Below, piece by piece: positions 51,537 through 54,019 of a stretch of DNA of 64,000 nucleotides. Both the position numbers and the translations under genes were made by a program. This stretch comes from Octopus vulgaris (Eukaryota), in NCBI GenBank assembly GCA_951406725.2, contig OX597814.1, positions 189,224,001 through 189,288,000 of the forward strand, given 5' to 3'. The number at the start of each line of letters is the position of its first letter. The stretch's first letter is position 1. The notes beneath the pieces were generated by a model that did no database searches, was not told where the DNA came from, and saw only the letters and a list, made by a program, of their open reading frames with translations.

Positions 51537-52257
51537 TATATATATATATATATTCTTAAGGTGGCTAGCCGCAATTTAAAAACCAAAGGCATAAGTACAA
51601 ATGTCACTAAAGTGTCGAAGGGTGAAAATCAGCACCACCAATGCTAGAGATACCAGTTAAAATAACCCTTAGCCACGTGCAGGCACTTACCTATTGACTG
51701 AAAAGAGAGAGCCAACCTCCCTATAGCAAGCGAGATACATACATTCATGAATGCATACATACATACATAAATGAATGCATACATACATACATACAAACAT
51801 GCATACATACATAGTGACCAGCTTGAATTCTTCAAAGCGTAAAACTTAAATCCCAAAGAATTATATACATGCATATATACACCCATACAAACGCAGGTAT
51901 TTGTAGAAGCACGTCAGAGCTGGTAGTACTGATAAATATATTTAAAAGCTTAACCTGTAGTGAACATACATATTGATCGTGCGTGTGTACCTGCGTTTTT
52001 CTGAACACACACACGCATATATATATGTATGTATATATATATATATATATAGCAATAATAATTCTCTAAAAGGGATATAGACAGTAACTGCTCGATAACA
52101 TAAGGGACTAAAGCCATCTGAATATGGCTAGGGACAGGGCAGGGTGTTACTGTTGCATTTAGCCCCAGGCGAACATCGACGTCACCAGAAAGGCTCGACA
52201 CCGTCACGGTGCCCTTAACCTGCAAAGGGAGGTAATTCCCCGATGAAGCGGAAACCA

Positions 52258-52303
52258 CACACGGACCATGGTTTCAAGGTGTATTGCCTATCATCGGCGT
52301 GTG
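52258..52303 (-). ncRNA. Minimal type I hammerhead ribozyme in the inverted arm
   Basis: Exact reverse complement of 52925-52970. Confidence 0.8.
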
Positions 52304-52924
52304 GTAGGCCTCCGCTTCCTCGACAAATTCTCTCTGCAGGATTTTCCTATATAGATTTTCAAGCAAAATACATTTGCTGATTTCGAAAATCTGTTCGAAA
52401 GCAATAATAATTCTCTAAAAGGGATATAGACAGTAACTGCTCGATAACATAAGGGACTAAAGCCATCTGAATATGGCTAGGGACAGGGCAGGGTGGTGGG
52501 GGTGTTACTGTTGCATTTAGCCCCAGGCGAACATCGACGTCACCAGAAAGGCTCGACACCGTCACGGTGCCCTTAACCTGCAAAGGGAGGTAATTCCCCG
52601 ATGAAGCGGAAACCACACACTTCATCGGGGAATTACCTCCCTTTGCAGGTTAAGGGCACCGTGACGGTGTCGAGCCTTTCTGGTGACGTCGATGTTCGCC
52701 TGGGGCTAAATGCAACAGTAACACCCCCACCACCCTGCCCTGTCCCTAGCCATATTCAGATGGCTTTAGTCCCTTATGTTATCGAGCAGTTACTGTCTAT
52801 ATCCCTTTTAGAGAATTATTATTGCTTTCGAACAGATTTTCGAAATCAGCAAATGTATTTTGCTTGAAAATCTATATAAGAAAATCCTGCAGAGAGAGAA
52901 TCCGTCGAGGAAGCGGAGGCCTAC

Positions 52925-52970
52925 CACACGCCGATGATAGGCAATACACCTTGAAACCATGGTCCGTGTG
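52925..52970 (+). ncRNA. Minimal type I hammerhead ribozyme (variant core), copy 1; predicted cleavage after C52964
   Basis: CACACG-CCGATGA-tAGG caataca CCTt-GAAA-CCATGG-TC-CGTGTG. Stem I is CACACG/CGTGTG, extendable via GAAGCGGA/TCCGCTTC. Stem III is the palindrome ACCATGGT and the triplet is GUC. Confidence 0.8.
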
Positions 52971-53284
52971 TGGTTTCCGCTTCATCGGGGAATTACCTCC
53001 CTTTGCAGGTTAAGGGCACCGTGACGGTGTCGAGCCTTTCTGGTGACGTCGATGTTCGCCTGGGGCTAAATGCAACAGTAACACCCCCACCACCCTGCCC
53101 TGTCCCTAGCCATATTCAGATGGCTTTAGTCCCTTATGTTATCGAGCAGTTACTGTCTATATCCCTTTTAGAGAATTATTATTGCTTTCGAACAGATTTT
53201 CGAAATCAGCAAATGTATTTTGCTTGAAAATCTATATAAGAAAATCCTGCAGAGAGAGAATTCGTCGAGGAAGCGGAGGCCTAC

Positions 53285-53330
53285 CACACGCCGATGATAG
53301 GCAATACACCTTGAAACCATGGTCCGTGTG
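53285..53330 (+). ncRNA. Minimal type I hammerhead ribozyme, copy 2; predicted cleavage after 53324
   Basis: Identical to 52925-52970. Confidence 0.8.
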
Positions 53331-53644
53331 TGGTTTCCGCTTCATCGGGGAATTACCTCCCTTTGCAGGTTAAGGGCACCGTGACGGTGTCGAGCCTTTC
53401 TGGTGACGTCGATGTTCGCCTGGGGCTAAATGCAACAGTAACACACCCACCACCCTGCCCTGTCCCTAGCCATATTCAGATGGCTTTAGTCCCTTATGTT
53501 ATCGAGCAGTTACTGTCTATATCCCTTTTAGAGAATTATTATTGCTTTCGAACAGATTTTCGAAATCAGCAAATGTATTTTGCTTGAAAATCTATATAAG
53601 AAAATCCTGCAGAGAGAGAATTCGTCGAGGAAGCGGAGGCCTAC

Positions 53645-53690
53645 CACACGCCGATGATAGGCAATACACCTTGAAACCATGGTCCGTGTG
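53645..53690 (+). ncRNA. Minimal type I hammerhead ribozyme, copy 3; predicted cleavage after 53684
   Basis: Identical to 52925-52970. Confidence 0.8.
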
Positions 53691-53858
53691 TGGTTTCCGC
53701 TTCATCGGGGAATTACCTCCCTTTGCAGGTTAAGGGCACCGTGACGGTGTCGAGCCTTTCTGGTGACGTCGATGTTCGCCTGGGGCTAAATGCAACAGTA
53801 ACACCCCCACCACCCTGCCCTGTCCCTAGCCATATTCAGATGGCTTTAGTCCCTTATG

Positions 53859-53904
<46 letters not shown>

Positions 53905-53978
53905 GCATACATACATGTGTGTGTATATATATACACACACATATATATATGCATACATACACATATATACATATATAC

Positions 53979-54019
<41 letters not shown>

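Follow-up and report, generated by a model that had tools for sequence, protein, structure and literature searches.

The window considered here is a stretch of 64,000 nt from the Octopus vulgaris genome (contig OX597814.1, positions 189,224,001 to 189,288,000, forward strand), in which two TA-rich tracts enclose an insertion at 52051-53862 that is built throughout of a 360-nt unit, arranged as two arms in head-to-head orientation. Unit positions are numbered such that +1 is the first base 3' of the predicted hammerhead cut between GUC and C, and the features of the locus, in this numbering, are as follows.

52017..52051, no strand assigned: left (TA)n target tract
52051..52620, minus strand: left arm, 570 nt, unit +2 to 360 followed by 1 to 222 (long 3' end)
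52051..52094, minus strand: 44-nt 'tail', unit 179-222, exclusive to the left outer end
52254..52305, minus strand: predicted type I hammerhead of the left arm, C17 at 52264
52607..52620, no strand assigned: head-to-head junction, 13-nt spacer plus the shared C at 52620
52620..53862, plus strand: right arm, 1243 nt, unit +16 to 360, two full 360-nt units, then 1 to 178 (short 3' end)
52923..52974, plus strand: predicted type I hammerhead of the right arm, C17 at 52964
53283..53334, plus strand: predicted type I hammerhead of the right arm, C17 at 53324
53643..53694, plus strand: predicted type I hammerhead of the right arm, C17 at 53684
53860..54016, no strand assigned: right (TA)n-rich target tract

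The C at 52620 is common to both arms, being unit +2 on the minus strand and +16 on the plus strand, and a spacer of 13 nt separates the perfect inverted arms at this junction. The right arm (52620-53862) is a tandem with a period of 360 nt and 3.5 copies; three intact hammerhead cores are crossed by it and one by the left arm, which carries private changes at unit 275, 287 (a 2-nt deletion) and 299 together with a 9-nt deletion at 118. The two flanks of the insertion are not mirrored, and an ORF for RT and GIY-YIG is absent from within it. This anatomy, with arm starts at +2 and +16, an overlap of a single C, outer ends in TA and one plus three cores, is as the initial annotation had described it. 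A near-twin of the junction, with arm starts at +4 and +16/17, was seen at another locus (L306, the same as L048). Elsewhere in the window, a U6 snRNA copy of full model length (39961-40067, minus strand, 91.3 bits) with several substitutions represents a gene or a pseudogene, and a tandem at 37054-37449 has a 187-nt period, 2.1 copies and 88% matches.

The 360-nt unit is tandem and putatively non-coding, with one predicted type I hammerhead each; its predicted fold is rod-like (z -5.3), and an arm at locus L251 holds 14 full units. In the predicted hammerhead, stem II has a U.U pair at its base and stem III is short and palindromic; core position 4 is a C in place of U in copies of the young subfamily. 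When the structure, as named by the analyst, was laid over 34 hand-picked sequences (33 distinct, four from a sister family), 97.4% of cells were paired and five pairs showed two-sided change, against at most 47% paired in slid controls. Across this set the 3-8 pair is C-G, U-A or U-G: the youngest and most numerous subfamily has C3-C4...G8 (e.g. 53291-53297), and older copies have U3-U4 and, at position 8, either G or A. At its centre, stem III varies among AU, UA, UG and CG and is always self-complementary, which a passage of PMC4209133 names as a hallmark of hammerheads cleaving in dimer form, and the U4C change, according to a passage of PMC3088659, lowers activity in vitro, yet is sufficient in a viroid. 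Because the helices covary, cleavage of the predicted ribozyme is plausible as far as sequence can tell. No hammerhead appears among the 150 of 290 Rfam matches listed for the window, and none of the sequencing runs listed as holding the unit is recorded as RNA; the joint from 360 to 1 is present in contigs, and a DNA tandem alone gives the same joint.

Non-LTR retrozymes have been described (PMC7229834) and linked to Penelope-like elements (bioRxiv 10.64898/2026.07.22.740005), as set out in passages of both sources. In the passages compared, metazoan non-LTR retrozymes likewise consist of a tandem unit of 170-400 nt with one type I hammerhead each, a rod-like fold and many dispersed copies, and axolotl HHR_Amex2 (PMC7229834) has in common with the octopus hammerhead a 2-bp helix III and the U.U at the stem II base; the C at core position 4 sets the young octopus subfamily apart from them. 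By its tandem length range and its conserved per-unit hammerhead the octopus unit would fit a non-LTR retrozyme, a likeness drawn from DNA, with the RNA circle and its cleavage being predictions. The head-to-head layout with fixed, paired 3' ends belongs to the octopus family and is absent from the retrozyme passages compared. Neither retrozyme head-to-head insertions nor a published breakpoint map for retrozymes was found in a literature search over open-access papers without their supplements.

The window copy is one of many. Exact patterns that require TA detected, genome-wide, at least 755 outer ends joined to TA at unit 222 and 530 at unit 178, and in a set of loci not chosen on TA the outer ends mostly adjoin TA too. 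Three sets were mapped: the first 100 listed places with a 222/TA end (set 1), 19 further loci found with an internal pattern, the one not chosen on TA (set 2), and 40 loci found by a 178/TA end (set 3). A mappable head-to-head junction was present in 82 of the 100 loci of set 1; in 77 of these 82 the partner arm stopped at 173-178, and no partner arm stopped at 222. The 18 unmapped loci include two too long for the stretch examined and three with tiny partner arms. Set 2 contains nine head-to-head loci out of 19, all nine pairing a short with a long end, the rest being eight single arms, one chimera and one degraded copy, and set 3 has one junction in 28 of 40 loci, always with a partner end at 215-222 (28/28), besides 11 single arms and one double junction. 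Loci with a single arm make up about a sixth to a quarter of sets 1 and 3, and weigh against the twin-priming explanation preferred below. Loci L132-L140 were left out of the breakpoint statistics because they had been picked by score and are hence biased to long arrays. At one locus (L255:3713-4561) two adjacent head-to-head insertions were observed, all arms of which begin near unit 33.

The layout and the fixed outer ends are direct observations: one arm stops at 178, the other at 215-222, and the tail is one-sided. This pairing of outer ends is the known Penelope layout of a 'tail' plus an inverted copy, and the window insertion is a real, young and ordinary example of an already known kind. 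Penelope insertions carry an inverted 5'-truncated copy and a tail of 30-40 bp at one end, in (TA)n targets, as stated in parts of PMC8557442. The octopus copies resemble such endonuclease-positive Penelope-like insertions (passages of PMC8557442 and PMC3846280) in the inverted 5'-truncated copy, the one-sided tail and the (TA)n targets, and differ from those described there in a unit putatively without ORF, a tail of 44 nt rather than 30-40, and arms made of several units in tandem.

In the initial annotation, the junction was read as a footprint of in vivo cleavage, with cDNAs running to the ribozyme-made 5' end; a peak of breakpoints at the cut site would have supported it, and an even spread along the unit would have refuted it. 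At the cut site, the mapped arms show the refuting outcome. Among 214 arm starts (sets 1 and 3; the window was excluded because it had been chosen for its cut-site feature), one falls at +1 to +3 and six lie within 5 nt of the cut, where 6.5 were expected; in the window itself the right arm begins at +16, so the right cDNA did not reach the cut end either. Genome-wide, exact patterns breaking at five successive positions gave 15, 4, 14, 7 and 4 raw hits, and after removal of point variants and small indels in continuing units the true ends at +2, +1, +3, +4 and 360 numbered 5 (window included), 1 (ambiguous), 4, 6 and 3, in counts that detect close copies only and in which 1-base overlaps blur end positions by one. 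These counts are flat around the predicted cut: the mean stopping rate predicts 3.35 ends per position, and the probability of at least five at one position is 0.25. The cut site is read through 1518 times genome-wide by exact sequence, stops at +1/+2 amount to at most 6 of 1537 arrivals (0.4%), and on the first pass stopping at unit 1-10 ranks with the lowest rates obtained (one event, 0.76 per 1000 nt). The breakpoints as a whole are non-uniform, with their excess at unit 43-59 and not at +1.

By chance, one of the two arms falls in a 5-position interval at the cut site at 2.8% of loci, so that about twenty coincidences like that of the window are expected over 755 loci. The window junction does lie close to the predicted cut site, but chance alone would give as much. 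As inner joints have no cut-site preference genome-wide, the window copy is no evidence of in vivo cutting; over the population of copies the footprint reading is refuted, and for this single copy no such claim can be made.

The spread of the inner joints, the correlation of arm lengths and the sharing of variants can be read directly from the copies. Arm lengths correlate within loci (rho 0.57, n=82, set 1; rho 0.65, n=26, set 3, two complex junctions having been dropped), and the cut site is crossed equally often in both arms at 64 of 107 loci vs 33.8 after shuffling, the window again being excluded. Subfamily variants agree between arms 677 times and disagree 37 times over 88 loci, a count without a null. 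Of 19 private substitutions present in at least two segments, eight occupy all covering segments of both arms, five one whole arm and six some segments; singleton private changes number 41 in young loci. Together, the correlated lengths and shared variants suggest two coordinated cDNAs on one RNA. The cut site is crossed at least once by 130 of 214 arms, which bears out the earlier proposal that templates were circular or uncleaved multimeric.

Arm starts cluster at unit 43-59, and within it at 48-57 (24 vs 4.9 in set 1, 6 vs 1.4 in set 3), just 3' of a long predicted stem that pairs 2-45 with 282-327. Stops in this cluster occur at 29 of 181 arrivals on the first pass vs 6 of 112 on later passes (p=0.005), the pattern to be expected of an enzyme that opens a circle on its first round and rolls on from there, but within identity classes the contrast is not significant (p=0.21 and 0.17), so that a circle is only hinted at. 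Later-pass ends fit uniformity (p=0.13 and 0.29, pooled 0.07), and the first-pass rates above unit 120 are underestimates, since detection is poor for very short arms. A depletion of breakpoints at unit 229-360 among the first 30 loci faded with more loci. A circular monomer is the favoured template; mosaic variants at L109 and L049 do not fit a single homogeneous circle, and at L109 three private variants are dispersed, in both arms, over part of the units, which suggests mixed templates or switching. At L142:1520-2555 (the same as L242), the two joined arms come from different hammerhead families, one being a 178-end arm of the 360-nt family and the other belonging to a 490-nt family, and each of them ends in TA; this chimera indicates that two RNAs can supply the two arms. 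Overlaps of at least 3 nt at junctions are enriched in the family (13/56 vs 5.7%, window excluded), and the 1-nt overlap of the window is at the chance level.

In twin priming of L1, two cDNAs are started from both ends of one break and joined inside, which generates an inversion. This process serves as the working analogue for the octopus insertions (passages of bioRxiv 10.1101/2024.12.14.628481), which differ from it in that a poly(A) end is lacking, both priming sites are fixed and internal, and the arms overlap in the template. With good confidence, we regard the window copy as a non-LTR retrozyme that was inserted recently in head-to-head form, with the match to the cut site due to chance. 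Its maker was likely an RT/GIY-YIG enzyme of the Penelope-like kind, which would have primed two cDNAs, one from either end of a cut TA tract. Such a protein would cut both strands of the tract and begin one cDNA at unit 178 and another near 222, two internal sites that lie 44 nt apart, with one RNA or sibling transcripts as template; it would read through uncut hammerheads and stop at variable places, and the two cDNA ends would then be joined with little or no microhomology. We infer the enzyme, the shared template and the circle from the copies; that two arms have their 3' ends facing opposite ends of the TA tract, as proposed before, is supported.

A biochemical precedent is the Anolis Penelope element PAc, for which passages of PMC11167929 report, in vitro, two internal RT start sites that delimit the tail, cutting and extension of both strands, and unprocessed RNA as the main template. 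Hammerhead cleavage was dispensable there, and RNA ends were not seen at the cut site. With respect to those passages, the octopus family would be alike in its two predicted start sites bounding the tail and in the use of both strands, and its lack of an excess of ends at the cut site matches them. It differs in that its ends share 1-3 nt with TA, the PAc start site being non-homologous to DNA, and in its multi-unit arms, the PAc work being without a multi-round template.

ORFs of Penelope-type RT plus GIY-YIG are present elsewhere in the octopus genome. A search for GIY-YIG gave 6136 candidates, 150 of which were scored, and in 42 stretches around GIY-YIG hits (30 + 12, partly overlapping) none of the elements proved to be an autonomous one with sequence in common with the unit, such as the pLTR homology that would mark a non-autonomous Penelope derivative; we therefore infer the helper. 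At L199:1821-4983, a Penelope-like copy truncated at its 5' side lies head-to-head between TA tracts with a perfect inverted arm of 766 bp, both arms ending at the same 3' position in TA with no tail difference. A tail match at L199 was considered as proof of the helper and rejected, as it belongs to a separate neighbouring insertion of a sister family. That older sister family of hammerhead repeats (L199:5575-5817 and L203-L231; 2830 candidates, canonical core) is about 67-80% like unit 89-245; it includes copies in head-to-head form, and its two 3' ends are separated by about 49 nt. Loci L190-L198 represent a young Penelope-like family with a 781-aa frame of RT plus GIY-YIG, often preceded by an upstream frame of 330-480 aa, and with direct repeats of 300-500 bp in several copies; a pattern search of this family found no hammerhead.

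Other origins of the window junction have to be weighed against twin priming. That its left cDNA terminated at a 5' end made by the ribozyme, as a rare event in the family, is unlikely: the start of the left arm at +2, the five exact-pattern ends at +2 vs one at +1 and the covarying helices, which would make cleavage plausible, speak for it, but control positions hold 3, 4 and 6 ends, five or more at one position would arise readily (P=0.25), stops at +1/+2 and first-pass stops at unit 1-10 are as rare as given above, and the right arm starts at +16. Fold-back of a single cDNA, which by self-priming would give an inverted arm as proposed for palindromic Penelope junctions (argued in a passage of PMC3846280), is highly improbable for the window. 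It draws on the 13-nt loop and 1-nt overlap of the window junction, and in the family on breakpoints at most 10 nt apart, which exceed the shuffled numbers (16 vs 7.0 in set 1, 6 vs 1.6 in set 3), as well as on 9 of 107 junctions (L031, L056, L071, L090, L093, L122, L257, L263 and L272) whose arms start at the same unit position within 1 nt. These symmetric starts range over 14-326, none at the cut site, and could have arisen by fold-back, or by two cDNAs that both ran off the same broken end of a template. Fold-back fits the window copy poorly, because the arms are not identical, with differences at several sites, and the one that holds the loop measures 570 nt, less than the 1243 nt of what would be its copy; random joins give a 1-nt overlap in 28%, the process is impossible for the cross-family chimera L142/L242, and in one case, L132, the mirrored positions of a private variant are counted from the outer ends, not from the junction.

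We give hardly any credence to the junction being an assembly or library chimera. Contigs bridging 52620 were found in 0 of 4 public runs, but contigs prove presence only and the runs may derive from other individuals; the junction of another locus, L117, appears as a loose end in two of those runs. Against a chimera stand the unmirrored flanks, arm ends at both family-typical positions with private variants that differ between arms, and an equal layout at more than 100 loci.

Beyond the preferred reading of twin priming by a Penelope-like enzyme, it is possible, if rather doubtful, that a two-headed Penelope RT uses two fixed sites of a single circular retrozyme RNA to prime both ends of the DNA, and rolls around that RNA in step. 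If this were true, the correlation of arm lengths, the shared private variants and the stall at the base of the long RNA stem, mainly on the first pass, would constitute genomic evidence for rolling-circle twin priming, and one mechanism would account for both the Penelope inverted repeat and its tail. The claim that the locus records cutting by the ribozyme in vivo does not hold, in agreement with the use of unprocessed RNA by Penelope in vitro. With hundreds of young insertions whose ends can be mapped, the octopus family is a natural data set that allows tests of how Penelope-type inversions and tails are formed and of retrozyme circles as template.
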